Under the pieces are notes generated by a model. The model was not told the DNA's origin. It made no database searches and saw nothing but the letters and a program-made list of their open reading frames with translations. The translations under genes and the position numbers were made by a program. This document shows, in pieces, positions 1,580 to 41,685 of a DNA stretch of 64,000 nt. Each line of letters opens with the position of its first letter. Position 1 is the stretch's first letter. Source of the DNA: a virus. Taxonomy: Duplodnaviria; Caudoviricetes. The stretch covers positions 96,001 through 160,000 of IMG/VR virus record IMGVR_UViG_3300028588_000015; one strand, given 5' to 3'.

Positions 1580-2806
1580 ATGAGTCATAAAAAACCAAGT
1601 GCTGAGCAATACCGTCAACTCGCCGGTGAGATTTATAAAGAAGCATCAACGGTCAATAACTTGGCACAGGTAATGTCGACCAAGTTCTCCCAAGCACTGC
1701 TGATGATCGCCACCAATTTGCCGGTAGAAGGGCGCCAGGCGTTGATGGCCTTACACGAAGAGTTCCTGATCGAGATGGACCCGTTCCGTGCGCACGAACG
1801 CTTGTCTTTCGACGAAGCTTTCTCGGGTCACGGCACGCTTGCCAGTTATCTGCGTGAAAAGACCGATCTGAGTAAGATCGCCCCGCTCTATCCCGAGCAT
1901 AACGGGGAAACTATCCTCGATGCAATCCGCGCCGATTTGGTCGATTTCGATTACGGCCTGTATCAGGACGAGAAAGAAATTGAAGAGTTCAAAGCATTCT
2001 TGTCGGATTTGCATAAGAACGCACATGAAATCATGCCGCCGTTTTTCAATAAGTGCGATGACTTCCGTGGGTTTCTGGGTGTATGCAATCAGGAAAAGAT
2101 GGTCAATATTGAAAAGGAATACGCATCGGGTTTTTATGAGGACACCGCGCGACCATGCCATCTCGATGGTTCGTTCCCTTGGATTCTCTTCATCAAGAAG
2201 ACCTTCTTCCCGCGAAGTAAACATGCGGTCCATGCAGTACTCCTCTTGCGGCAAGGTTGGGCGCCGCAAGTGCTTATCCAACACCCGTTGGAAGATTGCT
2301 GGTATGAATGGGATCAGTGTCATTTGATTCCGGGCATGACGGAAGCACTGCTGCGTGAATACACCTTCATCAGTATTCCGCTGATGAGCACTTCCGAACG
2401 GGGTTGGGATTTCGAAGCCTTATTGGCCCAGATCAAGAAAGACAATGGCGCCCGCCTACGCCAGCACGCTGTTTTACCGAAATCGCAGATCATGTTTCAA
2501 CGCGCTGCGGACAAACCGAAGCCGGTGTTTGGCGACTTTATGTTTGTCGACGGCAGCGCGCGACTGACTGTTACCGCAGGTAACGTCTGCCTTGTTATTT
2601 ACTGCTCCGAAGTCAATGGGCAGTGGGGAGAGGAAATTCGTTTTATCCGCCCGCAAAATCCGAACTGCCTTATCAGTATCCCCGTGGACTTGAAGGACAT
2701 CCCACTTCAACAGCAGCGCGTCTTGGTCCAACGCGCGTTCCACGCCATCGAGCGCAAGAACCAGCTGATTATCCAACACCAACAGAAAGAAAAGGAATCC
2801 ACATGA
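1580..2806 (+). CDS. Hypothetical protein (408 aa)
   Basis: Long ORF with AGGA RBS; ATGA overlap with next gene. Confidence 0.8.
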   Translation: MSHKKPSAEQYRQLAGEIYKEASTVNNLAQVMSTKFSQALLMIATNLPVEGRQALMALHEEFLIEMDPFRAHERLSFDEAFSGHGTLASYLREKTDLSKIAPLYPEHNGETILDAIRADLVDFDYGLYQDEKEIEEFKAFLSDLHKNAHEIMPPFFNKCDDFRGFLGVCNQEKMVNIEKEYASGFYEDTARPCHLDGSFPWILFIKKTFFPRSKHAVHAVLLLRQGWAPQVLIQHPLEDCWYEWDQCHLIPGMTEALLREYTFISIPLMSTSERGWDFEALLAQIKKDNGARLRQHAVLPKSQIMFQRAADKPKPVFGDFMFVDGSARLTVTAGNVCLVIYCSEVNGQWGEEIRFIRPQNPNCLISIPVDLKDIPLQQQRVLVQRAFHAIERKNQLIIQHQQKEKEST

Positions 2807-4263
2807 AAGTTAACTACGATATCAATAAGAAGCACCCGCAATCCATCCTGGGCTTTTTCAGCCAGTACTTCGAAGGCCGTTTTCATAACGGCTTGACCGA
2901 GTACCCGTACGAGCGGTTCTTGGAAGAGGTGTATCCCTACCATCTCACGGCCGAGCGCAACATGCTGGAAAACTGGGATGGCGTGCGTCAAGCGCTGCCC
3001 TGCGTAGCGATCCGACAGAAACGTCCGAACGGCGAAACGCAGTACTGGGGTTTCCGCCGCACTGACAAGGTCGGCGAGGCCCGCATCGCCGGCATGGTGG
3101 CCTGCTTCTGGGGTGGTCACGTCGATGCTGTCGACGTATCGTTTAACGACAAGTCGGTTCTCGCGCTGGATCTTACGCTCAAGGTTGGCCGTGACCGTGA
3201 ACAAGGTGAAGAATACCGCATCTTCCGTGAAGCCTCGCCCTTCGAGAAAGACTGGTCGATCAAGCTACCACTGACGCCAGCCAACCAATTCATCGCCAAC
3301 AGTACGGTTGAAGTCGATCGGCACCACGTGGCAATCATCTATACGGTCGACCTGCCGGAAGACCACGCGGTCGAAGTGCGCGAAGACGAACTGGAAGACG
3401 TGCCGCCGATGACGGCGCAAGAAGCTCTCGACGCGCACGAAGCCGGCCAGTTCGAACTGGAAAGCTGGGCGCTGATCTACTTCCGCCACGTGCGTGCCAA
3501 GGAACTGCTCGACTCTGGCGCCGTAGTCGCTATCGACCCCGTACCCGAGCGGCTGGCGGACGTTTCTCTGACCCCTTACAAGCGTAGTATCGCCGGCATC
3601 GTGAAAGACGGCGAGATCAGCGAGGCCGATAAAGCGCAGGGCTACAGCTGGCCTGTCAAAATCCAATTCGGCCAAGCTACCGACTGGGACCATGGCCCGT
3701 TGTACGACGCTTACGTAGCGCGCCGTGGCAAGAACTGGGACGAGTTTAAGCGCAAGGTGATCCTGATGTTCGGCATCGAAGGCAGCAAGAAAGTCTGGGA
3801 AACACCGGAAGACACGAATGCAACGGCACTCTTTCCGGCCGAGGCAGAAGCGTACCGAATGCTGTTCCGCTCGGCGGGTGTTGAACACACAGTCGGTCAG
3901 ATGCTGACGGTACTTGACCTCTTGGCGATGGACACGGTCAAAGCAATGACCCTCATCCATGTGCAGTTCGACGCCGACATGAATATCGTCGATGGCCCGT
4001 ACAAGCTCGTCAACGGCGAAAAGGTGCCCCATAAGTCGGTCGCTCTCGAAAGACCGCCGCAGGTGGTCCATGAAGAAGGTGGTGACGAGGATCTGGCAGC
4101 ACATACCCGCCAAGCGGCCGAAGCATGGTTCAGCGGCATCGATCATCCAGACATCGTTGAAATCCGCGAAGCCGTGATCGCCAAAATCTTGGAAAAGCAG
4201 CGGCTACAAGAATCCAAACCGGACGCATGGGATAACTTCAAGCCCAGCAAGTCAGTCGAATAA
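2803..4263 (+). CDS. Nudix-like hydrolase domain (N-terminal) fused to unknown C-terminal region
   Basis: RQALPCV..., GEARI, FWGGHVD and REQGEE motifs resemble COG4112-type Nudix proteins; start at 2803 after AAGGA. Confidence 0.55.
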   Translation: MKVNYDINKKHPQSILGFFSQYFEGRFHNGLTEYPYERFLEEVYPYHLTAERNMLENWDGVRQALPCVAIRQKRPNGETQYWGFRRTDKVGEARIAGMVACFWGGHVDAVDVSFNDKSVLALDLTLKVGRDREQGEEYRIFREASPFEKDWSIKLPLTPANQFIANSTVEVDRHHVAIIYTVDLPEDHAVEVREDELEDVPPMTAQEALDAHEAGQFELESWALIYFRHVRAKELLDSGAVVAIDPVPERLADVSLTPYKRSIAGIVKDGEISEADKAQGYSWPVKIQFGQATDWDHGPLYDAYVARRGKNWDEFKRKVILMFGIEGSKKVWETPEDTNATALFPAEAEAYRMLFRSAGVEHTVGQMLTVLDLLAMDTVKAMTLIHVQFDADMNIVDGPYKLVNGEKVPHKSVALERPPQVVHEEGGDEDLAAHTRQAAEAWFSGIDHPDIVEIREAVIAKILEKQRLQESKPDAWDNFKPSKSVE

Positions 4264-4268
4264 ACTAT

Positions 4269-4298
4269 CGGCATAAAACCGCTACCTTCGGGTAGCGG
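4269..4298. terminator. Terminator hairpin; GGCATAAA (TTTATGCC on - strand) on its left side
   Basis: CCGCTACC-TTCG-GGTAGCGG preceded by CGGCATAAAA. Confidence 0.65.
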
Positions 4299-4321
4299 GT
4301 ATTGACTAGGAAAAAATAAGA

Positions 4322-5080
4322 ATGGAAAAGAAGAAGGTTCCTTTGCTGTTGTTCTCGGGCGGTCTCGATTCGTCCTACATGTTGCAAACGTATCTGGAAA
4401 AGGGTGACGTTGAAACACTTTACGTCAAAGGAGCACAGCATCCAGACAAAGTCACGCTCGAATTGCGGGCTCGCACGCGCATCATTGCCGAACTGGAAAA
4501 GAAGACCGGCAATAGGGTTCTCAAGGACCGTGTCGTTAATCTCCACGATTTGTTCGAAGGCGACATGCCTGACCGTGCTTTTGTTCAACCCATCACCTGG
4601 ATCACCGGTGCGCTCCAAGTATCGAACGGAGAGAAGCATGCTCACCTTGCTATTGGCTATGTCAGTGGCGACCAAGTTTCTTCCGAAATTCCGTTCATAC
4701 ACGCTGCATGGGAAAACATACAGCACTTCACGAAGCAAAATACTATCCCGGTTGAGTTTCCATTGAAGGTCACCACCAAGCTGATGATCCTCGATAACAT
4801 CTGGCCTGAAGTGGTTCAGCACGTCTGGGTCTGTGAAATGCCCGAGCGGCGCGGTGACCGTATCGACGGCGTGGGTAGTAAAAAAAGACCAAAATCATGC
4901 GAATGGTGCGCAGCATGTCTTACACAGGCTGGCACCTTGGCGATGTGGAAACAGAAACACGGTGAGCCATACAGCCATAGATTCATCGCGCGGCTGCGTT
5001 GCAATAAGTTAAGAGAAGAAGATGCGTTAAAACGAGTACTACTGAAAGAAACTATCCCTCCAAGAGAAAATTCAAGATGA
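4322..5080 (+). CDS. queC: QueC-like PP-loop ATPase (7-cyano-7-deazaguanine synthase family)
   Basis: LLLFSGGLDS PP-loop near N-terminus; C-terminal WVCE...CEWCAAC Zn-binding cysteines. Confidence 0.75.
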   Translation: MEKKKVPLLLFSGGLDSSYMLQTYLEKGDVETLYVKGAQHPDKVTLELRARTRIIAELEKKTGNRVLKDRVVNLHDLFEGDMPDRAFVQPITWITGALQVSNGEKHAHLAIGYVSGDQVSSEIPFIHAAWENIQHFTKQNTIPVEFPLKVTTKLMILDNIWPEVVQHVWVCEMPERRGDRIDGVGSKKRPKSCEWCAACLTQAGTLAMWKQKHGEPYSHRFIARLRCNKLREEDALKRVLLKETIPPRENSR

Positions 5081-5403
5081 AAATCAAACGTTTCGATATC
5101 CCTATCAAAATCTTCGTCACCCGTTTCTTCACGCCCTATCCCAAGAAAACAGTCGAACGTGAGCGCTCGACCGTCGAGACCCGAGAAGGTCGAATACGGG
5201 CACCGAAAGACATCGAAGACGAACTGATCAAGCTCCTCGCCGACGCCAAGGCATCCAATCTCGTGATTACGGTGACCCAACAGTCCGTGTTCCCGCCGGC
5301 GATGGGCCGCATCCAAGATCACATCGTGATTCGCGAGTCATATGAAGTTGCGCGCATGATCATGGAGCGCAAAGACTTCAACCAAGACAAGGAACAAGAG
5401 TGA
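5077..5403 (+). CDS. Hypothetical protein
   Basis: 108-aa ORF, ATGA-coupled to the queC-like gene. Confidence 0.7.
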   Translation: MKIKRFDIPIKIFVTRFFTPYPKKTVERERSTVETREGRIRAPKDIEDELIKLLADAKASNLVITVTQQSVFPPAMGRIQDHIVIRESYEVARMIMERKDFNQDKEQE

Positions 5404-5404
5404 T

Positions 5405-5818
5405 ATGGACGATTCCTTGATTGTGCGTGAAATCTTCGCCCACCGCGTCGACGATCACGTGTCGCCGCTCAAGATCGAGTGCCTTGGGGTTGCGGCACAG
5501 GGCGGCGCACAGAACTATTACCGGATCACCGGTTTTAATTACGCAGCCGACGGCAAAACGGTCAATGCCCTGCCAATCTCTTTTCAGATTGGCAACCCCG
5601 AGGTGTTGGGCGTCAACGGTGTGACCATGGAAGCACTGCTGGCGGTGGTCATTGACCGCCTGTCAGGATTGCAAAAAGGGATGTACCCGTGTAGCGAAAA
5701 CAATATGGCTTTGGGGCATCTCGAAGCCAGCATGACTTACCTGCACGCACGGTCGCGCCGTATTCAACAGACGCTGTTTGAAATTGAAGCCATGCCTGAA
5801 CTGCCAGAAAAGAATTGA
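5405..5818 (+). CDS. tad1: Tad1-like anti-defence signal-sponge protein
   Basis: GGAQNYYRI, ISFQIG, GVTMEALLAVVIDRLSGLQKGMYPCSENNMALGHLEASMTYLHAR align by eye with Tad1 ([60 protein letters not shown], recalled). Confidence 0.8.
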   Translation: MDDSLIVREIFAHRVDDHVSPLKIECLGVAAQGGAQNYYRITGFNYAADGKTVNALPISFQIGNPEVLGVNGVTMEALLAVVIDRLSGLQKGMYPCSENNMALGHLEASMTYLHARSRRIQQTLFEIEAMPELPEKN

Positions 5819-5924
5819 TGTAAATTATTACATTAATTTCCCTATGGTATGTTTAGTACTGGGTAACTCATTTTCCCCAACCTGAATAAAGGGTAACCGA
5901 TGAACAAACTCGAATAACCAAAAA

Positions 5925-6570
5925 CTATCTGATGATCCGTGAAAACCGGAGCCACGTGCTGAGCACTGTGCGAGGTGTCACCGTATCCAGCGGTGTGGTA
6001 CGTGGTTGGGATAATACCCCATGAAACCCGAGGGCTCCAGAAGTTGTTCTGGGATTGCTTCTGCCGGTTGACAGACCCTTCACGGAGTCTAACAACTGAG
6101 TGTGTGTGCCTCTGGTCATAGAACGTGACGTTTTTGGGTTACGGTACGTCGCATTTTCCTTTCCTAGGAAAAGATACCATGCAAGCTTCCAACTTGTGAA
6201 AACCGTACGGCCAAACTTTCTGGGTGGAACCAGTCATGTTTGGCAAGTTGTCCACATTCCCGTGGCGGCCCTCCCTTGGGCAGCGGACAGCGGGAAAGAG
6301 CATATTACCCCGGCCCGTGTGGAGTGTGGGTGGTTGGTGCCGCGGCCTGCGGCCAGTGCTCTGTGTGCAGCCTGTAACACCTTTCTCGTGTTGGCTGAAA
6401 ACAGCCGGCCTCTTTGGAACCCGCCAAAGATGATTCGCTCGATATTGGGATACCGACGGGATGTCGGGGTCGGGGGAATGCGTGTGAGGGTGTTACGGGA
6501 TGTACAGTGTTTTCATGGATCGTGATAGGGATGTCCGATCTTGACAGTCACCCTTCGGGGTGACTTTTTT
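5925..6570 (+). ncRNA. Candidate large highly structured ncRNA (~600-650 nt), family unassigned
   Basis: No credible CDS; 13-bp closing helix 5934-5946 with 6509-6521 (one G-U), extended by CTATC/GATAG; more than 10 internal hairpins; 3' UUCG intrinsic terminator. Confidence 0.75.
6546..6570 (+). terminator. Intrinsic terminator ending the candidate ncRNA
   Basis: AGTCACCC-TTCG-GGGTGACT then TTTTT. Confidence 0.9.
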
Positions 6571-6594
6571 CCGACTACTAAAGAAAACGATACC

Positions 6595-7146
6595 ATGAAA
6601 CATTTACGATTGGCATTGGAGCATAACTCACCATTAGCTAACATGGAAGAGGTGAGGGCGGAACCAGAAGGAAATATGTGGTTTCGACACACCTCGCCGT
6701 ATGCGCTGGCTGAATTGAAACCGTTGAGTTACGATGAATTGGAAAAGGTTCGGCCCGATTACGATGTTGAGGCACGTAAAAGGACAGAAAAGAAATACCA
6801 TCGCTTGGCACACACGAATCCCGACACGAGTTTTCTTTACGCCACGATGGTGGGATTTCATCAGATGGAAGATGTGCTGTCTTACCCAGGTTACACATAT
6901 TTCTTCAAACTGGAACTATGGCAATTGCCCGAATGTATCTTTGATGTCGTCGATCAAAAGAAGTGGATGGAGCCGACCAAAGGTATTGCTGGATACACGC
7001 TGGCACGAGACATTTGGACGCGGCATCGGCGAGAATTTAAACCGTACGAGGAAGAAGGTCTCGGCACTATTGAACCACGTATCGAGCTTATCATTCCGTA
7101 TTCGGTAAAACCCAAACTCTATGTCCCGCAAGAAGAAGACCGTTAG
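6595..7146 (+). CDS. Hypothetical protein with N-terminal LRLALE motif (possible head-packaged protein, possible ART-like fold)
   Basis: MKHLRLALEH start; FRHTS...FLYAT...RIELII pattern; start at 6595 rather than 6541 (which lies in the terminator). Confidence 0.7.
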   Translation: MKHLRLALEHNSPLANMEEVRAEPEGNMWFRHTSPYALAELKPLSYDELEKVRPDYDVEARKRTEKKYHRLAHTNPDTSFLYATMVGFHQMEDVLSYPGYTYFFKLELWQLPECIFDVVDQKKWMEPTKGIAGYTLARDIWTRHRREFKPYEEEGLGTIEPRIELIIPYSVKPKLYVPQEEDR

Positions 7147-7151
7147 AAGGC

Positions 7152-7182
7152 AGAGGGAGGCTAACGCCTCTCTTTATGCCGG
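7152..7182 (+). terminator. Terminator with TTTATGCC tail
   Basis: AGAGGGAGGC-TAAC-GCCTCTCT then TTATGCCGG. Confidence 0.75.
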
Positions 7183-7235
7183 ATTGTGAAAAATACCGAG
7201 GCAAGATATTTCATAGTGAACACAGGGAGAAACAG

Positions 7236-7661
7236 ATGTGGCCGTCAGTCATCGTACTCGATACGCAGCGTATCATGAAAGCGTTTCGCGAACACGCGGA
7301 GCAGTCCGGTAAACCACTCGATTTTCCAGATGAAATGGTACGTGAGATTGTGGTCTGTCTTCGTCATGCAAGACGCGCGACGCTGCGCCTGGACCAACTC
7401 ATGTGGTGTATCTTGAGTAACGAATTCGAGCACCATTACGCAGCGTACGCGGATTCCACCGTATTGGTATTTATTGAAGAACTGGGCAATGTACTAATGG
7501 ATAGCATTATCCGACATAATCTCTACGACCAATACGGCACGCTGCACTATCGTTATCTAGAACCCCGAGTGGTTGATTTTAACTGTATCATTTTAAAGAG
7601 GAGTGAAAATGTTGGTAGCGACGACCCCCTCCCCAGCCCAACCCCCCGTTATCATTTTTGA
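7236..7661 (+). CDS. Paralog family A member (P-x-V/I-x-x-L-D N-terminus)
   Basis: MWPSVIVLD... and C-terminal LYDQYGTLHY...CIILK; GGGAG RBS. Confidence 0.7.
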   Translation: MWPSVIVLDTQRIMKAFREHAEQSGKPLDFPDEMVREIVVCLRHARRATLRLDQLMWCILSNEFEHHYAAYADSTVLVFIEELGNVLMDSIIRHNLYDQYGTLHYRYLEPRVVDFNCIILKRSENVGSDDPLPSPTPRYHF

Positions 7662-8016
7662 TATCAGTGAAGTGATGTGGGAGTACCGAGACTGCTTTGG
7701 TCCAGAGAGCGATGCAGGCATCGATATGGAGTATCTCTTCAATGATATTTTGCAAGCATTGAAAGTTCACCAGTATCACCCCAATGTACTCTTTATCTTG
7801 GCGAAGGCAGTGATTGCCAATAGCCGCGAGTACTTGCCTGTCGAAGAAAAAAGAATTGAAGAAGCCATCTTACAGTTGGGTGAGGTGATTCACAAGAAGT
7901 TACAGAGCAGCGGCTTTTACATCAACCAACAACACCCGTACCATTTACATCGTCTTTTCATGAACAACAGTTTGGTGCTTGCTCATGAAGGGTATTCGGA
8001 CTACGTGGAATTCTAA
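7609..8016 (+). CDS. Paralog family A member
   Basis: PPVIIFDI..., C-terminal HPYHLH...NSLVLAH; GAGGAG RBS. Confidence 0.7.
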   Translation: MLVATTPSPAQPPVIIFDISEVMWEYRDCFGPESDAGIDMEYLFNDILQALKVHQYHPNVLFILAKAVIANSREYLPVEEKRIEEAILQLGEVIHKKLQSSGFYINQQHPYHLHRLFMNNSLVLAHEGYSDYVEF

Positions 8017-8074
8017 TCGATGGGCCTTCAGGCTCATCTTTTTTTTTTGTCTGTTCAAGAACCATTAGAATTAA

Positions 8075-8091
8075 TTACAGCAACATATTAC
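8075..8091 (+). promoter_or_regulatory. Putative phage promoter motif copy
   Basis: TTACAGCAACATATTAC between a terminator and the next gene. Confidence 0.5.
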
Positions 8092-8146
8092 AAAGGGAGC
8101 ACAAGTGAATGTGACTCTTAACTAACTTGAAGAAAGAGGAAAGAAC

Positions 8147-8545
8147 ATGAAAATCGAAATTGCAGACTGCATGAAAGTCGCCAAAGACTTGGTGGAAATG
8201 ATGAAAAAGATCGATGGGTGTGACCCGCGCGACACTTCGCAATTAAGTGTTCGCATTAACCCTATTATGCTGGAAGACAACAATGGCACGGAACGGCCGG
8301 GTATTCAGGTGCTTAATACCGAGAATAGCTCAACCGTAAGTTACATGGTCGTGGGCGGTCATCCGAGATGTTTTACGATCGAATACATGATGCTGACGCT
8401 GGCGGAACACGAGTCTGAAGAAGAAGATTTTCCAAGTAATTTCTTGGACCTCGACCGCGACGGCATGGCTTTGTTTAGTTTGCACGTATTTAATTTCCTA
8501 GGATTCGGTGTGAAACCCACCGTACCTGGCGGCGAAGGCGATTAA
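8147..8545 (+). CDS. Hypothetical protein
   Basis: 132-aa ORF with AAGAGGAAAGAAC-ATG leader. Confidence 0.8.
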   Translation: MKIEIADCMKVAKDLVEMMKKIDGCDPRDTSQLSVRINPIMLEDNNGTERPGIQVLNTENSSTVSYMVVGGHPRCFTIEYMMLTLAEHESEEEDFPSNFLDLDRDGMALFSLHVFNFLGFGVKPTVPGGEGD

Positions 8546-8619
8546 GAAAAAAGTACGAGAAGGGGGGCAATAATGTGATTGACCTCCCCATTGTTTTGTC
8601 TAACTGAAAGAGACTTATC

Positions 8620-8916
8620 ATGACTACCGCCTGTGCAGTTGCTCAAGAGTCGTATCGTATCAGGATGGACATCGGTATCAAAAGTGATAATGGCCATGTG
8701 CTCCTTCGTGCGAGGGAATATACGACCACGATCACGCCGCCGGTGCAGAAGTACACGACACATGCCGCAATCATGACGCGTTGTGAAAACCTCGCGCTGG
8801 CGGAATACGCCAAGCAATTTGAAACACAAATGGATGGCGACATGACCATCCAACGTCTGCTCCGTGGAAAAGATTGGAGCTTCTTCTACAAAGTCAATAC
8901 GTTTAAAAAGGAGTAA
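8620..8916 (+). CDS. Hypothetical protein
   Basis: 98-aa ORF in co-oriented run. Confidence 0.65.
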   Translation: MTTACAVAQESYRIRMDIGIKSDNGHVLLRAREYTTTITPPVQKYTTHAAIMTRCENLALAEYAKQFETQMDGDMTIQRLLRGKDWSFFYKVNTFKKE

Positions 8917-8920
8917 TACG

Positions 8921-9163
8921 GTGAAATCGAAAGAAATGATGATCAAGGATGCACGCATGTATTTGCGTTCGGCCAAAGCGGGGATTAGCGAGGATGGCGC
9001 TTCCCTTACGTTTATGGAAGCAATGGCGGCAGCTAAACAAGCCGAACAAGCCGCTGCCGAGCTTTATCGCTTGGCCGGGCGTATCGAAGTTGAAGCGGAC
9101 ATTAAACGAAAGAAGGCAATCGGCAGTGCCGCCGACGAATTGAAATACATCGTCGCGGCGTAA
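8921..9163 (+). CDS. Hypothetical helical protein
   Basis: GTG start after AAGGAG RBS. Confidence 0.65.
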   Translation: MKSKEMMIKDARMYLRSAKAGISEDGASLTFMEAMAAAKQAEQAAAELYRLAGRIEVEADIKRKKAIGSAADELKYIVAA

Positions 9164-9187
9164 ACAAATAAAAAGGAATAAGAAGAA

Positions 9188-9700
9188 ATGAGTACTCGTA
9201 AGAAAAAGGTTGAGGAGTTTAAGTACAAAGTCAAGACGACCCAAATTCCCGTGATGACACTTGAACAAAAGCAAGAAACGCTGGTACGCGAAGAACAAAG
9301 CAAACGCTTGCTTCGTATCCAGTGCTACATGGGGCTGGAGAAGATGCAACTCGGTATCGCCACACAGGCCGATTGGTATTTGATTCAGTTGCGTCTCAGC
9401 GTCGGTGACCGGATGGTGGATGTTTTGGAAAAGAACAACGTCGATCTGAGTACGGATGACATCCGCGATTTGAATACGGTTGCCGACGCCGGACTGAAAG
9501 CGTTATACGCGATCGGTGAGCGCATCAACGATAACTTGACGACGGAGTTCTATACCACGTTTGACGAGCGTGGAGATATCGAAGCCGCGCTGAACCTATC
9601 GGATGAACTTGAAGACCTCGTCACTGAGTTCTACGGCAGTGCGGTCTTCGCGCGTCTGTACTTGGACACCAAGAACCATTTGATCAGGATGCATCCATAG
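9188..9700 (+). CDS. Hypothetical protein
   Basis: 170-aa ORF, purine-rich leader, followed by terminator at 9703-9731. Confidence 0.8.
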   Translation: MSTRKKKVEEFKYKVKTTQIPVMTLEQKQETLVREEQSKRLLRIQCYMGLEKMQLGIATQADWYLIQLRLSVGDRMVDVLEKNNVDLSTDDIRDLNTVADAGLKALYAIGERINDNLTTEFYTTFDERGDIEAALNLSDELEDLVTEFYGSAVFARLYLDTKNHLIRMHP

Positions 9701-29601: not shown

Positions 29602-30118
29602 GACTACTGAATCTGCGATCAAAAAAGCGCAACACTTATCAAAGCTAAATTTACCTCTATCCATAAGTGAAGCCGTGTACAAGTTGTATCTTCGGCTAAA
29701 GCAAATAAAGACAAAAGCAAAAAACGAAGGAAAGGACATCGCAGTCGACTTTGTTTTCAAAAGTGCCGAGAAAGACACCATGGCCGAGGTATATCTTCTC
29801 CCTAACGGGCTGGATAAAAATGAATATCACAATCACTGTCAACATGGTGTGCTAATTGCTTCGCTGCCTAGGAGAAATTCCGACTTGGTGATAGTTTTTA
29901 TGAAATTCCAAATCACCTCCGGCAAGCGGAAATTAATTAGCAATGAAAGAAAGCTCTATCCAACCAAACGCCCTAGGAAAGCGAATCTTGCTACCCAAGA
30001 AATTATTTGGGCTGCACAGAATCAAGTAACCTTAGGTGACATGAGTAAAATGGAAGATGATGTCTTGGATTTTTTGTTCAAAGACATCGAACCGCAACAA
30101 GGAGATATCAATGGATAA
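29594..30118 (+). CDS. Hypothetical protein (paralog of 30111-30605)
   Basis: MDRTTESAIKKAQHLSKLNLPLSISEAV; AT-rich. Confidence 0.7.
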   Translation: MDRTTESAIKKAQHLSKLNLPLSISEAVYKLYLRLKQIKTKAKNEGKDIAVDFVFKSAEKDTMAEVYLLPNGLDKNEYHNHCQHGVLIASLPRRNSDLVIVFMKFQITSGKRKLISNERKLYPTKRPRKANLATQEIIWAAQNQVTLGDMSKMEDDVLDFLFKDIEPQQGDING

Positions 30119-30605
30119 AAGCTTTGGTTCGTTCTTGGAAACAGCAAAAGACTTAGCGGAATTACGGCTTCCACCCAGTGTATCGGACGCAGTGTTGGTA
30201 ATTCAAAACACCATGCAGGCGACCAAGAAAGCGTTTCGTGATCAAAACAAAGAGCATCACGCTCTCCTTTACATCGATCGTTTGGGTCCGGAATTCAAGC
30301 GCCCCGGTGTGTCGATCTGCTGGGTACCTGACGAGCGCAAAACATTTGGCTACGAGGCCAAAGCCGTGATCCATGTCACTGAAATTGATCCCTATACGAG
30401 TGACGTCATGCTGTTGGCGATGCGACTTAACATATCGCACCCCCTCGCTACGGTACGGTATCGCCGGTACTGCAAGGACGATTACCGTAACCTCTCACGT
30501 GCCGCAGCAACGCAAGCGGCGTCGCACGGGATTACGCTACACAACATGCAGGACATCGGCCAGTACGTAATCGCATACCTGATGAAAATCCAAGAAACCC
30601 CATAA
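30111..30605 (+). CDS. Hypothetical protein (paralog of 29594-30118)
   Basis: MDKSFGSFLETAKDLAELRLPPSVSDAV; AAGGAG RBS. Confidence 0.75.
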   Translation: MDKSFGSFLETAKDLAELRLPPSVSDAVLVIQNTMQATKKAFRDQNKEHHALLYIDRLGPEFKRPGVSICWVPDERKTFGYEAKAVIHVTEIDPYTSDVMLLAMRLNISHPLATVRYRRYCKDDYRNLSRAAATQAASHGITLHNMQDIGQYVIAYLMKIQETP

Positions 30606-30621
30606 CAGGAGATTTACAAGA

Positions 30622-31029
30622 ATGGCGCAGCCTATTATTGACCATCTGCTCAGCAGGATTAACAACTTAATGGAGCACACTGACAGCAATAAGTGCTGCG
30701 TCGCATCGCAGGACCCGCGTGATCTCAGCGGCATGACTGACCCTAGCTTTTTGGCTTGGCTTCGTAAGAAAGACAAGCCCACCGACAAGGTGTGCGGGCA
30801 GCATGGCGTAAAGCTAAGCTTACAGACCCGCCACGACAGCGCGGGTGAGAAAGCGTACGTATTGATGTTTGACGATAAAGATGAGATGCACTGCGCCATT
30901 CGTCAATACCGGGTCAGTGATGATGCAGTAAGCGTACTTGCTGGCACCAAAGATTTGTCGTCGATGATTGTCGACGTCGTTGCATTTTTGTTGTGGCGCA
31001 CCATGCCGGCTGCGCCACGCACGGATTAA
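30622..31029 (+). CDS. Hypothetical protein
   Basis: 135-aa ORF, AGGAG RBS. Confidence 0.75.
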   Translation: MAQPIIDHLLSRINNLMEHTDSNKCCVASQDPRDLSGMTDPSFLAWLRKKDKPTDKVCGQHGVKLSLQTRHDSAGEKAYVLMFDDKDEMHCAIRQYRVSDDAVSVLAGTKDLSSMIVDVVAFLLWRTMPAAPRTD

Positions 31030-31047
31030 CCCAAAGGAGATATTGAC

Positions 31048-31428
31048 ATGCAGCAGCATACTGACATCAATCGCGTCATCGACACCATCTACACCTTGGC
31101 CAATAACAAGATCCAGACGGTACCGAAGAACGCATCGGTGATCCGGGCCACTTCCAGCGAGGCGCTCCATGATCTCGCTATCGCGCAGTACGAGCGCGTG
31201 GCAATGATCTTTCCCGTGGAAGACGTGGCTCACGAAGTCGATCAAGTCGGTCTCGTCCTGTACACGAGCTACGGCGGCATGGAAATGACCAAGCAACTCA
31301 TTTTCATGCCAGCAGAAGAAAATGGGATGGTGAACTTTCCCTTGGCTGGGATGGACCGCCGTACCAACGCGCAGCTGGCGAACATCGTGACCGAGTTCAT
31401 CTGCACCGGGAATATGCCACCACAATAG
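31048..31428 (+). CDS. Hypothetical protein
   Basis: 126-aa ORF, AAGGAG RBS. Confidence 0.8.
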   Translation: MQQHTDINRVIDTIYTLANNKIQTVPKNASVIRATSSEALHDLAIAQYERVAMIFPVEDVAHEVDQVGLVLYTSYGGMEMTKQLIFMPAEENGMVNFPLAGMDRRTNAQLANIVTEFICTGNMPPQ

Positions 31429-31437
31429 GAGTGGGTG

Positions 31438-31851
31438 ATGGACAATAAACCCAAGATCGTTATCCTCGATATCAAAAAAGAGTTCGATGCTTTTTGTAAG
31501 CGGGTCGAACCTTTGCTTGTGGGTACCGATTATACGCCAAGCGGACTCATCGAGTTCGTCTGGATAAGTTTCGGGGATCGCCAGATTATGGACGACATGA
31601 TCCCCGACGCTATCGATACCATTCTTCCCGAGGAAGAGTACGACGGTCCAATGTGCCATGAAAATGTGAGGCAACTGTCAAGTGAACTCTGGAACTTTTG
31701 TAGAACACTGGCTTTTCACCTCAACAGCAACGAACTCTACGGTAGCGATAACCTCATGCCGTATCACCTGCGTTTTCATCCGCATCTCGGTTTGTATCTC
31801 AAGTACGATACTGAATGGAAAAAGGAACTCGAAAAACTGCGTAGTTACTAA
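31438..31851 (+). CDS. Paralog family A member
   Basis: KPKIVILDI...LYGSDNLMPYHL...GLYLKY. Confidence 0.75.
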   Translation: MDNKPKIVILDIKKEFDAFCKRVEPLLVGTDYTPSGLIEFVWISFGDRQIMDDMIPDAIDTILPEEEYDGPMCHENVRQLSSELWNFCRTLAFHLNSNELYGSDNLMPYHLRFHPHLGLYLKYDTEWKKELEKLRSY

Positions 31852-31912
31852 TGAAAAGGCGTTACTTCGGTAACGCTTTTTATGCGTAAAAAATAAAGAA
31901 AAGGAAAGAAAA

Positions 31913-32548
31913 ATGGATAGGCATAGAACACTGTATCGCAACGAGCAGGTAGGTATTCTTCTGGTAGTTCCAGAGAAGACTTCGCCGACCACCGGCAAAA
32001 TCTATAAACCAGAAAGATACATGGATCAGCAAGTTCTTAGCAATCTAAAACAACTGTTCGAGACGGTTGGCGATGGCGCCGAGAATCTATTGATTAACGC
32101 CACTGTCGAAAACACGCGCATGCAGTTTGGCGAGATACAATCGCCGAACATAAAAGAAAATCCCAAATTTATCGTGGTTCATAACAACGCGGGGACTACG
32201 CATTATTTCGGCGTGTTCGTCAATCTAAAAGAAACGAGCCAAGACAGCCTTGGTCGTTTCTATGGGTTTCCTGACTGCTGTATTGATTACTTCATGTCGG
32301 ACGCATTCTGGGAAGACAGAAAGAATGACTATATTGCAGTTTTTGATGGTACAGGGTACATTGCGTGTCCGTGTTGCAATCAAAAGGTGAAAGACGATTT
32401 GCAGGCAGAAATCAATGCCAAGCGCAGCGCTAGTGTACCCTTCCCAGAGGTTACGGATAGCAACTATTCATTAGTCTTGGAATATAGTGAATACGTCCTC
32501 GCTTTCGCGCAAGGAAAACTTAATCCACCTGAGGATAAAAATACGTAG
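31913..32548 (+). CDS. Hypothetical phage protein with Cys cluster
   Basis: GRFYGFPDCCIDYF...GTGYIACPCC...PFP. Confidence 0.75.
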   Translation: MDRHRTLYRNEQVGILLVVPEKTSPTTGKIYKPERYMDQQVLSNLKQLFETVGDGAENLLINATVENTRMQFGEIQSPNIKENPKFIVVHNNAGTTHYFGVFVNLKETSQDSLGRFYGFPDCCIDYFMSDAFWEDRKNDYIAVFDGTGYIACPCCNQKVKDDLQAEINAKRSASVPFPEVTDSNYSLVLEYSEYVLAFAQGKLNPPEDKNT

Positions 32549-32578
32549 TCGCTATAATGAGTGAAGGAGGAAAGATGC

Positions 32579-32953
32579 ATGGAACCAAAAATCATCGTGC
32601 TCGACGCCGGCACGAAGGTACATGAGTTAAAGAAAGTGTGTGCAGAAGGGGTCCCTTATCTGTACGATTATCCACGCGACATCTGTTCTAACCTTGTGCG
32701 CTGTGCTACCAACCGTGTGGCGCCCTATGGCGAACTGATCAAGTACGTGGCAAAAATCAAGCATGGTTCCAACGAAAACATGCCACAGGAGATGCTAGTG
32801 CGATTAACCACTGTCGTAGGTGACCTGGGTTTTTCTTTGATCGAATCCATGAAACGATTAAAAACACACGACATTCAATTAGAAGAGGATGAATGGATGC
32901 CGTACCACTTTCACAGTGCGCGGCGGAACGTCGTGGTACTGGCGAAAAACTGA
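32579..32953 (+). CDS. Paralog family A member
   Basis: MEPKIIVLD...WMPYHFHS...VVVLAK. Confidence 0.75.
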   Translation: MEPKIIVLDAGTKVHELKKVCAEGVPYLYDYPRDICSNLVRCATNRVAPYGELIKYVAKIKHGSNENMPQEMLVRLTTVVGDLGFSLIESMKRLKTHDIQLEEDEWMPYHFHSARRNVVVLAKN

Positions 32954-32960
32954 GGTCACC

Positions 32961-33341
32961 ATGAAACAGCCTCGCTATGTGGTACTAGATTTGAAGGAAA
33001 AATTCCGGCGCTTTCGAAACTACGTGGCTGACATTCCAATGACTGTGGGTCTCGTGTCAGTATCGCAGCTACTTCAAGAAGTACTGGAGAGTATTCTCAG
33101 TGATTGCCAGTACTGGGATATATCCATTGGTACGATGTGTCGGAATTGTTTGCAGGTAGTGGACCGCTATGTGCAAAAAGGTGATTTCGAGCCGCGCTTA
33201 GACCTTTACACCGTAAGCACCGAGTTAGCGTTTGTTGTTAGACAGAAGGTGGAGAAACACAGCCTCGAAGAAGGTGACCGCTTTTTGTATGAATACAAGC
33301 AGCACAGTCCAGACGGACTCTTGGTGCTTAAACTGACGTGA
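32961..33341 (+). CDS. Paralog family A member
   Basis: MKQPRYVVLDL...FLYEY...DGLLVLKL. Confidence 0.75.
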   Translation: MKQPRYVVLDLKEKFRRFRNYVADIPMTVGLVSVSQLLQEVLESILSDCQYWDISIGTMCRNCLQVVDRYVQKGDFEPRLDLYTVSTELAFVVRQKVEKHSLEEGDRFLYEYKQHSPDGLLVLKLT

Positions 33342-33374
33342 AAGCCATACATGACATGATCGAATGGGGGGAAC

Positions 33375-33752
33375 ATGCGGCAGCCTAAAGTCATCATCCT
33401 CGATTTGCGCGAAGCCAGTGGTGAATTTTTAGAGAACTTGAAAACAGAATTTGCGGCACCCCAAGAAAGCTGTTTGCAAGCCCTCACAGGCACGCTCGAA
33501 GGCGCTTTCATGACAGGCATCGGGGCATTGGCGTTTCGCTCCAATGAAAGTCGAAAGTTCTTTTCGAGTACGCCTGTCGACAGTGAACGTATGTTGTTTC
33601 GTTTGTACAAGACGCGCCTAGTCAATGAACTCGGTACCAAGATGTTGCAGCACGGTATCGTAGACGTCGATGACGGTGACTACTACTTAAGTGGTGTCGT
33701 ACAACAGGGTGTTCTTGTACTCAAAGCAAAGGACACTCATGGTAAGACCTAA
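33375..33752 (+). CDS. Paralog family A member
   Basis: MRQPKVIILDL...DYYL...GVLVLKA. Confidence 0.75.
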   Translation: MRQPKVIILDLREASGEFLENLKTEFAAPQESCLQALTGTLEGAFMTGIGALAFRSNESRKFFSSTPVDSERMLFRLYKTRLVNELGTKMLQHGIVDVDDGDYYLSGVVQQGVLVLKAKDTHGKT

Positions 33753-34107
33753 GATCGTTTTGCTTGATACCGCAGCGGTCTTAGAGCGTTTCCAAGACCA
33801 CGTAGGGGATTACTTCGACGAGGAAGAGGAAACGCTCCTAATGACCATTGTGAGGCAAATCTGCGAGCTTTTAGAAGACTGGGACACCGCAGACTTTTTA
33901 CTCCGAGAAGTGGCCAGCGATTTGATCGAGTCACTCAACCTCAAAGAGGGGTCAGAGAAAGCGGTTGCGCTGCGTAAGGGTGTGCTGGAAATCGCGCACA
34001 CCATTATCGGTAAAATCGAGCAACACCGCTTGCTCGAAGATGGTATCCTGTATTACAACTTCAGTGGTATGCATGGGTACAATGTTGTATTACGTTCTAT
34101 TTTTTAG
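33739..34107 (+). CDS. Paralog family A member
   Basis: MVRPKIVLLDT...ILYYNF...NVVLRS. Confidence 0.75.
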   Translation: MVRPKIVLLDTAAVLERFQDHVGDYFDEEEETLLMTIVRQICELLEDWDTADFLLREVASDLIESLNLKEGSEKAVALRKGVLEIAHTIIGKIEQHRLLEDGILYYNFSGMHGYNVVLRSIF

Positions 34108-34115
34108 GAGGTATT

Positions 34116-34574
34116 ATGGTGCCACATATTCCCGGTGCCGTGATTCTGGATATACGGCCGGCGTATCGTCAATTTATCAAAGAAGCCAACCCATTTCTCA
34201 TCGGCACCGATGTTAAACCTGAAGCAATTATTGAAGAGATTTGGGAAGCCTTCTTTGACAAAGACACGGTCGATGATCGTTTACTTGACACGGTTTGCGA
34301 CATCGGACGACGTTCTATTTTTGAACGCGCCAATAACGATTCAGAATCTTTCGTACATGTTCTCACTGACTTCGCACAGGTCATGCAGGCGCGGCTTGAG
34401 AGTCATCGTCTGTACGATGGACGCGGTTATCTGCCATTCAATATCGAGGTCGAGCCAGACGGTTTGATTGTTTTGAAACGTGATGACCATCTCGACCAGA
34501 TCCAGCAAGAATGGGACAAGGGCCAAGAAGAAGTAGAAGAGAACCCAGATGACCTTGAATACCTCGACGAATGA
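34116..34574 (+). CDS. Paralog family A member
   Basis: PGAVILDI...LYDGRGYLPFNI...DGLIVLKR; AGGAGG RBS. Confidence 0.75.
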   Translation: MVPHIPGAVILDIRPAYRQFIKEANPFLIGTDVKPEAIIEEIWEAFFDKDTVDDRLLDTVCDIGRRSIFERANNDSESFVHVLTDFAQVMQARLESHRLYDGRGYLPFNIEVEPDGLIVLKRDDHLDQIQQEWDKGQEEVEENPDDLEYLDE

Positions 34575-34620
34575 TATAGGTTCATGTATTCAGTGAACCC
34601 AATCCACTAGGGACGCTGTC

Positions 34621-34746
34621 ATGAAGTCATTCGCAGGTAAAATGTTGTTCTGGTTTATCGGTAGCTTCGTTGCCGGTAGTTTTCTTATTCTCTACGCCTG
34701 TACCGACCAAGCCGATCAGCGGGCGCTGGAGTCATCTTCGCAGTAA
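34621..34746 (+). CDS. Small membrane peptide (41 aa), absent from ORF track
   Basis: MKSFAGKMLFWFIGSFVAGSFLILYACTDQADQRALESSSQ; ends at a bidirectional terminator. Confidence 0.5.
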   Translation: MKSFAGKMLFWFIGSFVAGSFLILYACTDQADQRALESSSQ

Positions 34747-34748
34747 AG

Positions 34749-34820
34749 CGGCATACACCCCCTCTCTACCCTTCCCAATAACGGGATGGCTGTAGAGAGG
34801 GGGTGTATTGCTTTTATGCC
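34749..34820. terminator. Bidirectional terminator between convergent genes
   Basis: ATACACCCCCTCTCTAC...GTAGAGAGGGGGTGTAT long stem; TTTTATGCC on +, TATGCCGC on -. Confidence 0.8.
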
Positions 34821-34845
34821 TTATTTTTTGTTTCCTTGGTGCAAC

Positions 34846-35268
34846 TTACTCTTTGATGTACTGATCGAACTCACGGTCGATCAGGTGGCCTTTTTTGCTA
34901 CCGCCGATCTTTTTCTTGAACCCAGCTTTCGTGAAGACAGCAATCGATGCATGGTTATCGGACTCGATCCATGCACGGCCTTTCTTGTTCATATAGAAAA
35001 TCGTCAAAAAGCCAACGGCTACACCTTTGCCACGGTACTTGGGATCAACGAAGATTGAGTCGGTCTGGTAGTACCCATCTGATTTTCGTTTTACCCAAGC
35101 CAAACCCGCTAACTCACCCTCATGGTAGATCAGGTGCATATTGGAGTCAGGCTCTTCGAGAACGCTCTCACCCAAGAAGCGATCCTTCGACGCCATGCGG
35201 ATAAGTTCGCGGATGCGATCGTCTTCCTTGTGGCCTTCTAGCGCCATGCGCAAGTATTTACTCATCAT
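34846..35268 (-). CDS. GNAT-family acetyltransferase with N-terminal LRMALE motif
   Basis: IFVDPKYRGKGVA (acetyl-CoA motif A), NHASIAVFTKAGF (motif B). Confidence 0.85.
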   Translation of the reverse strand: MMSKYLRMALEGHKEDDRIRELIRMASKDRFLGESVLEEPDSNMHLIYHEGELAGLAWVKRKSDGYYQTDSIFVDPKYRGKGVAVGFLTIFYMNKKGRAWIESDNHASIAVFTKAGFKKKIGGSKKGHLIDREFDQYIKE

Positions 35269-36002
35269 CGTGCCCAAGCCACGAGTGGATTGTCGTGACT
35301 CAACATGGCAGCGCGCAAGACCTTCTCGCCCATGTATTCCCCCTTGGTGATCGACACGGCTGTGAACTCTTGGTCGTGTTTCCAGCTTTCGGTGTTTTGG
35401 TCCACCGGGCCTTCGATCTTCCAGTACCCCTTGTCGAGGTGAATATTCTTGGAGAACCGAATTCCACCCTCCTTCACGATCTCCGCGTAAAAGGTCATGC
35501 GACCCTGCGGGGTCTTTCTTGAACGCGCCACGTACTGCAAGGAAACACAGAAGAACCGCCCCGCAGTCTCAGGAATGAATTCCGTCGTCTCGGGGCTGTA
35601 TGACACCATCCAGTGTTCATCCGAGGCCGCTTGATCGTGCACCATGCTCTTGTTGGGTTTGAGCGCAGCACCGAAGGGGAGGGCATAAATCTTGTACCCG
35701 CCTTTATAGTCCTTCTCTTCCCCGTCGGAAGCATACTCGAAGAAGTCGCTCTCGGTAGCTGCGTAACCGAGGATACAGCCCAACAGCGTCGGTGCCACAT
35801 AGACCCGTGTGATGTCCCGGCATTCGCTGGGTGCACCCCGCAGGGTCAGCTGCGGGATGAATTTGCGAATGTTGGTGTTGGTACTGATGTGGATGAAGTA
35901 GTCGATTCCCACTTCCTCCGGCGTCACCACCGTGGTGTTCTTTTGCACCCGGGCACTACAGTGCTCTAGGTGTTTTTCTAACTTATCCCGATCATTGGCC
36001 AT
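35265..36002 (-). CDS. Hypothetical protein (possible ADP-ribosyltransferase-like fold)
   Basis: FIHIS...FIPQL...RVYVAPTLLGC...DEHW pattern; 245 aa. Confidence 0.65.
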   Translation of the reverse strand: MANDRDKLEKHLEHCSARVQKNTTVVTPEEVGIDYFIHISTNTNIRKFIPQLTLRGAPSECRDITRVYVAPTLLGCILGYAATESDFFEYASDGEEKDYKGGYKIYALPFGAALKPNKSMVHDQAASDEHWMVSYSPETTEFIPETAGRFFCVSLQYVARSRKTPQGRMTFYAEIVKEGGIRFSKNIHLDKGYWKIEGPVDQNTESWKHDQEFTAVSITKGEYMGEKVLRAAMLSHDNPLVAWAR

Positions 36003-36014
36003 AATTGTCCTTTT

Positions 36015-37565: not shown

Positions 37566-37712
37566 TTTCTTAAGACTTTCGTTTTTCGTGGCACTATTTA
37601 TTGTAAGGCTGTCTGCTCGGCGCAAGGTTTTCTTAGGATGACTCTTGGCTTCGTTCATACATGGAGTAACCCATTTTTTAAATTACTGTTCTACTACTTA
37701 GGGGGTTCTCAA

Positions 37713-38345
37713 GTGAGCATTGGGAATGTGAAAAACAAGCTTTCTTCGGTGATTTTTATCCCGTATTGGATTGCCGAAACCATCCAGCGAATGGGTCTGG
37801 CGTTGAGCGATGTCGTGGACTACGAAAAGATTCGCCCGACGCTCTCCATGCATGATATGGCAGGCTTCATGGCCGTGCAGTATGAATCCGACCGTTTGCT
37901 GTATTCCGGATCGCCCGGCGACGGTCCGGTCAGCTGTATGGGAAACGACCTCATCACGGTGTGGCGGTTCCTCACCCACGCTTGGCCGGTTGAGCAAGGC
38001 ACGTTCAGTGTCGGCAAAAAAACGTCGGAAGATTTCAACCGGACGTACGAATATGCGGGCGATGCCACCGTCAAAGGCGACGTTGTATCCAGATTGTATG
38101 GACAAGCTGTAAAGCAAGCGCGCTATGACCATGCCTTCGATGTGGTCAATCTGGCACCGCAAGTGGTCGGGGTGGTTGTTTATCCCGGTTACTTTGACCA
38201 AGCCAAAATCGATCTGTCCCTGCAACACCAATTGATCTGTTCCTTGATGCAAGTATTTTATGCACAAGGTGCGCCCTACGAACAAATCGCGGCTACCGCA
38301 ATTTATCGTAGACATCTCGAACTATTATCTGGCGAGCAAAGCTAA
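37713..38345 (+). CDS. Conserved jumbo-phage protein upstream of MCP (putative structural)
   Basis: GTG after AGGGGG; position between helicase and MCP as in phiKZ-like genomes. Confidence 0.6.
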   Translation: MSIGNVKNKLSSVIFIPYWIAETIQRMGLALSDVVDYEKIRPTLSMHDMAGFMAVQYESDRLLYSGSPGDGPVSCMGNDLITVWRFLTHAWPVEQGTFSVGKKTSEDFNRTYEYAGDATVKGDVVSRLYGQAVKQARYDHAFDVVNLAPQVVGVVVYPGYFDQAKIDLSLQHQLICSLMQVFYAQGAPYEQIAATAIYRRHLELLSGEQS

Positions 38346-38410
38346 GTAATACTTTGAGGCCACATGCCCCAAAAGCACATTTCCATTAACTAGGATAAGG
38401 TTCCTGAACC

Positions 38411-40606: not shown

Positions 40607-40626
40607 GCGCTTCCGGCACAACATGC

Positions 40627-40728: not shown

Positions 40729-40781
40729 TTAAAATACCGGGTCTATCTATCTCGTAGTCAATTACCTACTGGAGAATACGC

Positions 40782-41636: not shown

Positions 41637-41685
41637 GTAAAAGACGGGCGTAGCGTCCGTCTTTTATGCCGCTAAGTCAAAATTC

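Follow-up and report, generated by a model that had tools for sequence, protein, structure and literature searches.

A two-domain structured RNA gene with a hammerhead-like head, predicted to release its 3' domain, in a phiKZ-type jumbo phage lineage

What a jumbo phage keeps in about 0.75 kilobases (kb) of gene-free DNA is the question raised by the locus described here, a gap between a stop codon at 5818 and a start codon at 6595 in which no frame is coding-like. The gap lies in a stretch of 64,000 nucleotides (nt), hereafter the window (positions 96,001 to 160,000 of record IMGVR_UViG_3300028588_000015). The host record is a 225.5-kb IMG/VR virus from a leaf-litter metagenome, and its virion protein, major head protein, DnaB-like helicase and polymerase match phiKZ-type families, in agreement with the phiKZ-like jumbo phage assignment of the initial annotation; the closest cultured relative is the Burkholderia phage FLC9 (43% identity over a virion protein of 939 amino acids, aa). 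For this gap an independently transcribed, large structured RNA of a catalogued or a new class had been proposed. The proposal is upheld in its second form: the gap encodes a conserved, structured non-coding RNA gene without Rfam match, and the RNA family is new, outside ROOL, GOLLD, tmRNA, RNase P and group I/II introns. The reading that is favoured, with a probability of about 0.6, is that of a single-copy, two-domain RNA gene of one phiKZ-type jumbo lineage, in which a hammerhead-like head would free a 3' domain of about 390 nt.

The gene-free character that had been claimed for 5819-6594 is borne out in several ways. Codon log-likelihood is below zero in six of six frames of this interval, and the sole long open reading frame (ORF), of 141 aa on the plus strand (6100-6525), scores -0.15 in comparison with 0.215 ± 0.107 for real genes. 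Among homologues (see below), 88 of 104 indels (85%) are not multiples of three, and each homologue contains at least two stops per frame on both strands. Helix positions often switch among G-C, G-U and A-U, a pattern compatible with the plus strand only; because many G-U pairs fit this strand alone, the RNA is assigned to it, in common with the terminator and every neighbouring gene.

To collect homologues, the virion protein was used to reach whole records of relatives, and exact words from conserved blocks were scanned for. Ten have been found, belonging to three subgroups (A, B and C), each of them in a gene-free gap and on the strand of the flanking genes; identity within the subgroup of the window is 49-80%. 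Three are jumbo contigs of 219-224 kb (G001, G004 and G008) and one is a partial metagenome contig (L084), the only addition from the metagenome scan, while four FLC9-like contigs and a third type (L124) were obtained with an FLC9-compatible word. The copy in FLC9 itself was found through covariance models. The models R1 and R2, built without FLC9 and covering different parts of the RNA, each have their best or only match in the 321-kb FLC9 genome within the same unannotated 507-nt gap between gp133 and gp132, in the correct order and strand (LC667451.1 137441-137947, minus strand; L099:1942-2448). This homologue is reduced (about 480 nt, with a 135-nt hammerhead-like head), and the site is blank in the GenBank annotation. 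Members of the FLC9 group have an RNA that begins 2 nt past a stop codon and stops about 25 nt ahead of the next start codon. Because it starts so close to the stop codon and its own promoter and terminator are absent, the RNA of this group must be cut from a longer transcript, a situation that suits a self-cleaving head.

The architecture of the 3' domain has been derived by aligning the homologues with three covariance models (6136-6254, 6248-6368 and 6362-6506) and then counting base pairs. In the first module (30 pairs) 88.2% of the cells are paired, versus 32-44% in slid controls, and 19 pairs show double changes versus 2-5. The corresponding values are 87.4% versus 39-51% and 10 versus 2-6 in the second module (29 pairs), and 89.6% versus 37-48% and 26 versus 4-10 in the third (46 pairs); on nearly all measures, the observed values were matched in none of 500 shuffles. 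Alignments of this kind are fitted to the model and biased toward structure; an unfitted MAFFT alignment, combined with single-sequence minimum free energy structures, already exceeded slid controls about 1.8-fold in compensatory cells. These comparisons indicate that compensatory changes have preserved at least 14 helices in the 3' domain, a multi-junction RNA. It is made up of a 21-bp helix around three arms, a central module that also has three arms, and, on the 5' side, a module of three hairpins, and it displays strictly conserved single-stranded words (AAGUUGUAC, AAGUUGU at 6245-6251, the GAACCCGC loop and the UGUGCAGCC strand). Most of the helices originally drawn, that is, AGCCACGTGC/GTACGTGGTT, CACCG/CGGTG, TTTTCCT/AGGAAAA, GCCAAAC/GTTTGGC with its inner CTGG/CCAG, TTCCCG/CGGGAA, GAGCAT/GTGCTC, GGCTG/CAGCC, TCTTTGG/CCAAAGA and CCGAC/GTCGG, exist and covary. 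Two have to be given up: CCAGAA/TTCTGG is replaced by CAGAAG/CUUCUG (6038-6043/6058-6063), a pairing backed by G001 and G008, and GTGACGT/ACGTCGC lies in a window-specific insert and conflicts with the conserved helix at 6140-6145. Taken by itself, folding energy is weak evidence; z is -3.2 for the whole RNA, -2.4 for the 3' domain and -1.4 for the 5' domain, the last being no better than shuffled sequences.

The 5' domain has a different character. Ten sequences that include the 5' end share one order of elements: stem I, CUGAUGA, a 4-bp hairpin (hairpin X), P2, P3, GAAA, stem III, the dinucleotide U-H and the returning strand of stem I. The word CUGAUGA is invariant and abuts stem I in all ten. 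Stem I itself occurs in six combinations (CUAU/AUAG, ACUAC/GUAGU, GCUAU/AUAGC, GCUAC/GUAGC, GCUCU/AGAGC and GCUGU/ACAGC), one position alternating among A-U, C-G and G-C, and the closing pair of hairpin X is U-A, C-G or G-C. Compared with the type I hammerhead layout, hairpin X follows directly after A9, and GAAA is reached only past an insert of 63-113 nt formed by P2 and P3, the latter of which it abuts. Stem III covaries as well (GACGAAG/CUUCGUC, GGGGGAU/GUCCCCC and GGGGAGU/GCUCCCC, among others); in FLC9 it is a simple hairpin of 7 bp, in the window it is branched. Between stem III and stem I, 10 of 10 sequences have UC, UA or UU, H17 never being G, and each of them allows an A15.1-U16.1 pair, with the U opposite the last A of GAAA. 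When the window segment was shuffled 2000 times, the layout arose twice, and a relaxed scan of the genome (451 kb, both strands counted) returned one other place, leaving the RNA single-copy. Apart from the insert, both the layout and the full core words are those of type I, and the 5' domain is probably an elaborated type I hammerhead-like ribozyme, predicted to cut after U16.1-H17. The other place returned by the scan (C1:15755-15946, about 80 kb upstream of the window) is outside the long ORF-free stretches of a crude ORF call and is probably a chance match within a gene. Other interpretations of the conserved words were considered and dropped: a K-turn or box C/D reading of CUGAUGA, whose partner GA was not found; a canonical three-way hammerhead with GAAA inside the loop of hairpin X, in which stem II would be lost; and the RNase P-like words GGAAAG and ACCCG, which are not conserved.

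Expression of the locus can be followed in two small metatranscriptomes of about 100 Mb (X2 and X3), obtained from leaf litter in different samples and studies. Each contains one contig from the RNA (Table 1), of depth 18.9 in X2 and 14.4 in X3, with no mismatch to the window; no further contig from either falls within 3500-9500, and for 5860-6129 no RNA run was listed. In a control region with capsid, helicase and polymerase genes (30001-50000), one run gave seven pieces of 151-238 nt at a depth of 2-3.6 and the other a single piece at a depth of 2.3. The phage was active in both leaf-litter samples. In these RNA samples its 3' domain exceeds every mRNA piece recovered by several-fold, and it exceeds the 5' domain by several-fold or more. 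The contigs begin 12-14 nt past the predicted cut at C6117/A6118, and their starts fit a 5' end at this position, given the usual loss of coverage at ends. Because the environmental RNA libraries contain only the 3' domain, the mature RNA is probably about 390 nt long and released by cleavage, and its 3' end may be guessed at about 6506.

The sequence of events that we propose is as follows. Transcription would start near 5845, at the TATG/TTTTTAC words, and end at the terminator near 6575; the 5' domain (5925-6121) would then cut itself between C6117 and A6118 and so free, with a 5'-OH, the 3' domain extending from 6118 to about 6506. This domain would be the stable and abundant product, in line with the environmental RNA that covers 6130-6491, whereas the tail and the terminator would be trimmed away. 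The features on which this scheme is built are listed in Table 1.

Table 1. Features of the RNA gene and its surroundings (window coordinates).
Feature	Position	Strand	Remarks
Promoter-like words	AATTATTAC 5823-5831; TATGGTATGTTTAG 5843-5856 (TATG 5843-5846, 5848-5851)	+	conserved words
Leader	5888-5917	+	AAAGGG Shine-Dalgarno-like word; 5-codon mini-ORF, ATG 5900 to TAA 5917, MNKLE*
5' domain	5925-6121	+	hammerhead-like five-way junction; from covariation and core words
Stem I	5925-5928/6118-6121	+	covaries
CUGAUGA	5929-5935	+	invariant
Hairpin X (stem II position)	5936-5950	+	4 bp; closing pair covaries
P2	5950-6007	+	long helix, covaries; P2b 5979-5983/5991-5995
P3	6007-6021	+	small hairpin
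GAAA	6023-6026	+	invariant
Stem III (P4)	6027-6033/6109-6115	+	covaries; carries P5 6038-6043/6058-6063 and P6 6065-6070/6093-6098
U6116, C6117	between stem III and stem I	+	U16.1 and H17 in the hammerhead layout
Predicted self-cleavage site	C6117/A6118	+	position after U16.1-H17
3' domain	6118-6506	+	probable mature RNA of ~390 nt; from covariance-model alignments
X2 contig	6132-6491	.	metatranscriptome
X3 contig	6130-6477	.	metatranscriptome
H6	6140-6145/6202-6207	+	3' domain helix
H7	6154-6160/6166-6172	+	3' domain helix
H8	6181-6185/6193-6197	+	3' domain helix
H9	6210-6216/6238-6244; inner 6220-6223/6230-6233	+	3' domain helix
AAGUUGU	6245-6251	+	conserved unpaired word
H10	6257-6262/6291-6296	+	3' domain helix
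H11	6265-6271/6278-6284	+	3' domain helix
H12	6298-6302/6357-6361	+	3' domain helix
H14	6339-6343/6349-6353	+	3' domain helix
H1	6364-6384/6486-6506	+	long 21-bp helix; encloses H2, H3, H4 and H5
H2	6393-6397/6402-6406	+	inside H1
H3	6409-6417/6424-6432	+	inside H1
H4	6438-6443/6469-6474	+	inside H1
H5	6453-6457/6463-6467	+	inside H1
3' tail	6507-6545	+	local hairpin GGAUCG 6517-6522/CGAUCU 6533-6538
Intrinsic terminator	6546-6575	+	8-bp stem (hairpin 6546-6565), UUCG loop, U run

Several observations weigh against the release of the 3' domain by a hammerhead. The hammerhead model RF00163 has no match at the locus in five genomes at E<=10, and the core is interrupted by the P2/P3 insert between stem II and GAAA, which turns it into a five-way junction. 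To our knowledge, every described hammerhead is a three-way junction, and we know of no active five-way precedent; in such a core, G12 cannot stack on stem II in the usual manner, and catalysis therefore cannot be assumed. The five-way core probably also explains why the Rfam hammerhead models miss this domain. In addition, stem I of the window is only 4 bp long, the single-sequence folding of the 5' domain was seen above to be no better than that of shuffles, and a second, non-homologous hammerhead register of the window, with a cut at 6140/6141, scores equally, although this cut is contradicted by the RNA contigs, which run from 6130. The contigs, moreover, give neither strand nor true ends, their ends being approximate and depth per contig a rough measure, and they stop at 6477 and 6491, inside H1.

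Part of this evidence is shared with an unlikely explanation, a one-piece ornate RNA of about 600 nt (5925-6528), closed by its end helix, in which CUGAUGA, GAAA and UH would form a non-catalytic junction and the 5' half would be missing from the libraries because of a host RNase, assembly or filtering. This is close to the single end-paired molecule of about 600-650 nt of the initial annotation, with its 13-bp end pairing (5934-5946/6509-6521) extended by CTATC/GATAG. The duplex is better than chance in the window (-26.5 kcal/mol, compared with -15.9 ± 3.1 in shuffles, 1 of 500 being as good), and a weaker complementarity between the region of the X loop and the 3' tail recurs in G001 and G008; the failure of the Rfam hammerhead models, the five-way core, the inability of contigs to show ends and a filter that removes some records also agree with one piece. 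However, the pairing is not conserved: it is not significant in G001 and G004, appears in a different register in G008, is absent from FLC9, is not kept in G004, and receives no support from covariation. It would, furthermore, sequester G8, A9 and stem II in the window. The 5' CUAU pairs instead with 6118-6121 (CUAU/AUAG), a conserved and covarying closure present in all the homologues, so that the comparative data give two domains where one had been drawn. Finally, two independent samples agree on the 5' boundary, words of the 5' domain occur in neither, and it is very unlikely that chance alone would place seven hammerhead core features on the correct strands of the junction in every homologue.

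Still less probable is a purely cis-acting role, in which the hammerhead merely cuts a polycistronic transcript and the 3' part serves as a leader for the stability or translation of the downstream gene. The arrangement of the FLC9 group, with the RNA between two genes, devoid of promoter and terminator and ending shortly before a start codon, speaks for such a leader, and hammerheads are known to flank genes in prophages (PMC3088659). Against it, a strong intrinsic terminator stands between the RNA and the gene that follows in five members, and the RNA contigs end before the terminator and never enter the downstream gene. The identity of this gene also varies, being a 183-aa ORF in the window, the ribonucleotide reductase beta gene in G001 and a 125-aa ORF in G004 and G008; besides, 390 nt with at least 14 conserved helices would far exceed known leaders.

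A diverged member of a catalogued class (ROOL, GOLLD, OLE, group I/II intron, RNase P RNA or tmRNA) is very improbable, even if the size, the phage setting and the many junctions recall ROOL and GOLLD. With Rfam 15, the whole window gave nothing at gathering scores, and 5700-6700 gave only chance-level matches at E<=10; no match on the RNA body was obtained at E<=5-10 in the window and five homologous loci. In particular, RF03087 and RF01998 had no match at E<=10 in the window region or at E<=5 in the five homologous loci, and none of the families that the annotation had named for comparison (ROOL, GOLLD, OLE, introns) was recovered. Its failure to assign the RNA to tmRNA, RNase P or group I/II introns agrees with the absence of Rfam matches to them at any threshold and of any tRNA or tmRNA in ARAGORN; moreover, an intron would need flanking exons, which are absent, since the flanking genes are complete and differ between phages, and the RNA is single-copy. 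Last, the idea that one strand or the other carries a coding gene, intact or decayed, is refuted, because, although the 141-aa ORF exists and antisense ORFs of 87-175 aa in G001, G004 and G008 match each other at E<1e-5, the codon statistics, frame-breaking indels and stops described above are non-coding throughout, ORF lengths and positions are not conserved, PHROG matches are none and substitutions are compensatory in helices instead of three-base periodic, so that the antisense ORFs grouped by BLAST are a by-product of RNA conservation.

Returning to the two-domain gene, its transcription signals agree with an independent unit. Upstream TATTAC and TATG promoter-like words had been pointed out, and they recur as TTTTTAC-N12-TAT(G/T)GTATGTTAG in four phages (window, G001, G004 and G008). 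They resemble the early promoter word of phiKZ, TATATTAC (PMC7058600), and its late promoter, (-3)TATG(+1) (PMC7618050), from which a promoter role may be proposed. The mini-ORF of the leader is matched in layout and length in G004 (MKQNY*) and G008 (MNYTR*), with different peptides, and is absent from G001 and the FLC9 group. The tail hairpin occupies the same position in the window, G001, G004 and G008 (-9.6 to -12.5 kcal/mol) with differing sequences, and the tail contains a strand, GUUUUCAUGGAUC, able to pair with 5934-5946. The UUCG terminator of the initial annotation is present, followed by its U run, and is kept with compensatory changes in G001, G004, G008 and L084; the FLC9 group lacks it.

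As for function, our best guess is that the 3' domain works in trans, binding proteins as a scaffold or decoy while the host is taken over, because the RNA is located within a block of accessory genes, carries conserved single-stranded words and accumulates far above phage mRNAs. Protein binding or self-assembly has been proposed for other ornate phage RNAs. By analogy, a trans-acting RNA that binds proteins or assembles with itself would fit the abundance, the conserved words, the junctions, the GGAGG arm and the CCUCC-like loops. A sponge for CsrA/RsmA, suggested by repeated GGGAUG words, was dropped, as these words are missing in the FLC9 group. A bolder version can be held only tentatively: the 3' domain would represent a new functional RNA class of nucleus-forming-type phages (for instance an RNA-only assembly, a ribozyme, or a decoy of host factors or ribosomes), freed by a five-way hammerhead that is gated by pairing between the stem II loop and the 3' tail. 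Release of the RNA would then depend on complete folding of the molecule, either awaiting it or being prevented by it.

Some loops of the RNA are worth recording in this context. Pyrimidine-rich loops, UCCCUU and CCCUUCAC (6272-6277 and 6075-6082, with equivalents in L005, L054 and L057), recur and resemble an anti-Shine-Dalgarno, and a purine-rich AAGGAGG arm recurs in the UUAACCGNAAGGAGG hairpin, at a place that differs among subgroups A, B and C; together they suggest internal tertiary pairing or ribosome mimicry. Another pair of loops, CUUCCAA of H8 (6186-6192) and GUGGAA of H9 (6224-6229), is complementary (UUCCA/UGGAA) and may form a kissing contact; both are invariant in subgroup A, which makes covariation uninformative, and the idea was dropped.

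The distribution of the family is narrow. Among 50,697 phage records, blastn with the region or with the FLC9 copy gave nothing besides FLC9 itself, the flanking proteins used as bait in IMG/VR gave no relatives, and models R1 and R2 had no match in phiKZ, RSF1, RP31, RaK2 and two more distant IMG/VR relatives. A weak R2 match in Xanthomonas phage LucasX was rejected, since it falls inside a normal protein gene and contains no word of the family. A search with the pattern TGTGTGCAGCCTGTA returned mostly chance matches, and a contig scan with the hammerhead/stem II word returned at least 120, also mostly by chance, none of which extended past the motif. The literature consulted on jumbo-phage non-coding RNAs, Chimalliviridae, FLC9 and ROOL/GOLLD contains no description of this RNA; a 2026 jumbo-phage review says of phiKZ only that non-coding RNAs are expressed. 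A more diverged form, the third, is that of L124 (IMGVR_UViG_3300010399_000031, 243 kb; 2800-3400), whose head is hammerhead-like as in the others, with stem I GCUGU/ACAGC, and whose much reduced 3' domain retains only AAGUUGU, the UAACCGAAUGGAGG hairpin and the long-helix module; this form may define a minimal functional core.

With regard to the surroundings, the majority of the neighbouring genes have no Pfam or PHROG family. In the four phages the order is a QueC-like gene, a small ORF, sometimes a 137-aa ORF, and then the RNA. The 137-aa ORF of the window (5405-5818) lies directly upstream of the RNA, and its sole local homologue is part of FLC9 gp131 (L103:6832-7848), a protein of 338 aa encoded two genes downstream of the FLC9 RNA; a 133-aa copy exists in G001 and none at the corresponding place in G004 and G008. 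Elsewhere in the window, the X2 contigs 32574-32805 and 32873-33023 overlap a 340-nt stretch (32549-32888) that is gene-free by the crude ORF call, and 32549-33023 may be another expressed non-coding region.

The interest of this RNA goes beyond one phage. Large conserved RNAs without known function are rare and have repeatedly opened new biochemistry, and this one is expressed in nature well above phage mRNAs. Its locus is in the accessory region of nucleus-building phages, in which RNA traffic and host takeover are open questions, and the copy in FLC9, a cultured phage that infects the plant pathogen Burkholderia glumae, makes deletion, mapping and purification possible. Should the 5' domain prove to cleave, a hammerhead core can accommodate two extra helices within its GAAA strand, the misses of covariance models are explained, and searches for this ribozyme should be widened.

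Two known systems offer the closest comparisons, the first being the hammerheads of bacteria, phages and prophages. Those of prophages have been proposed to cut polycistronic phage transcripts. Hammerheads are common in phage and prophage intergenic regions, their stem II can be very short, and insertions in the GAAA strand are reported to be tolerated, none of them of 63-113 nt (PMC3088659). Like the type I hammerhead (RF00163; PMC3088659), the 5' domain keeps that ribozyme's order of elements and exits through stem I at both ends, with an H17 that is never G, a possible A15.1-U16.1 pair and a phage intergenic site, and it is predicted to free a 3' RNA. Unlike it, the phage RNA carries the 63-113-nt P2/P3 module between stem II and GAAA, which results in a five-way junction, has a branched stem III in subgroup A, spans 131-240 nt for the domain versus about 45-100 in the class, and escapes the Rfam hammerhead models, its activity being a prediction. 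The second comparison is with ROOL (RF03087) and GOLLD (RF01998), ornate phage and prophage RNAs that form RNA-only cages (bioRxiv 10.1101/2024.12.08.627333; PMC5737381). The RNA described here differs from them in sequence and structure, in the hammerhead-like domain placed in front, and in its confinement to a narrow phiKZ-type lineage of soil and leaf litter. On the other hand, it shares with both an unassigned function and the general plan of a large multi-junction phage non-coding RNA, with conserved single-stranded words and its own promoter and terminator.

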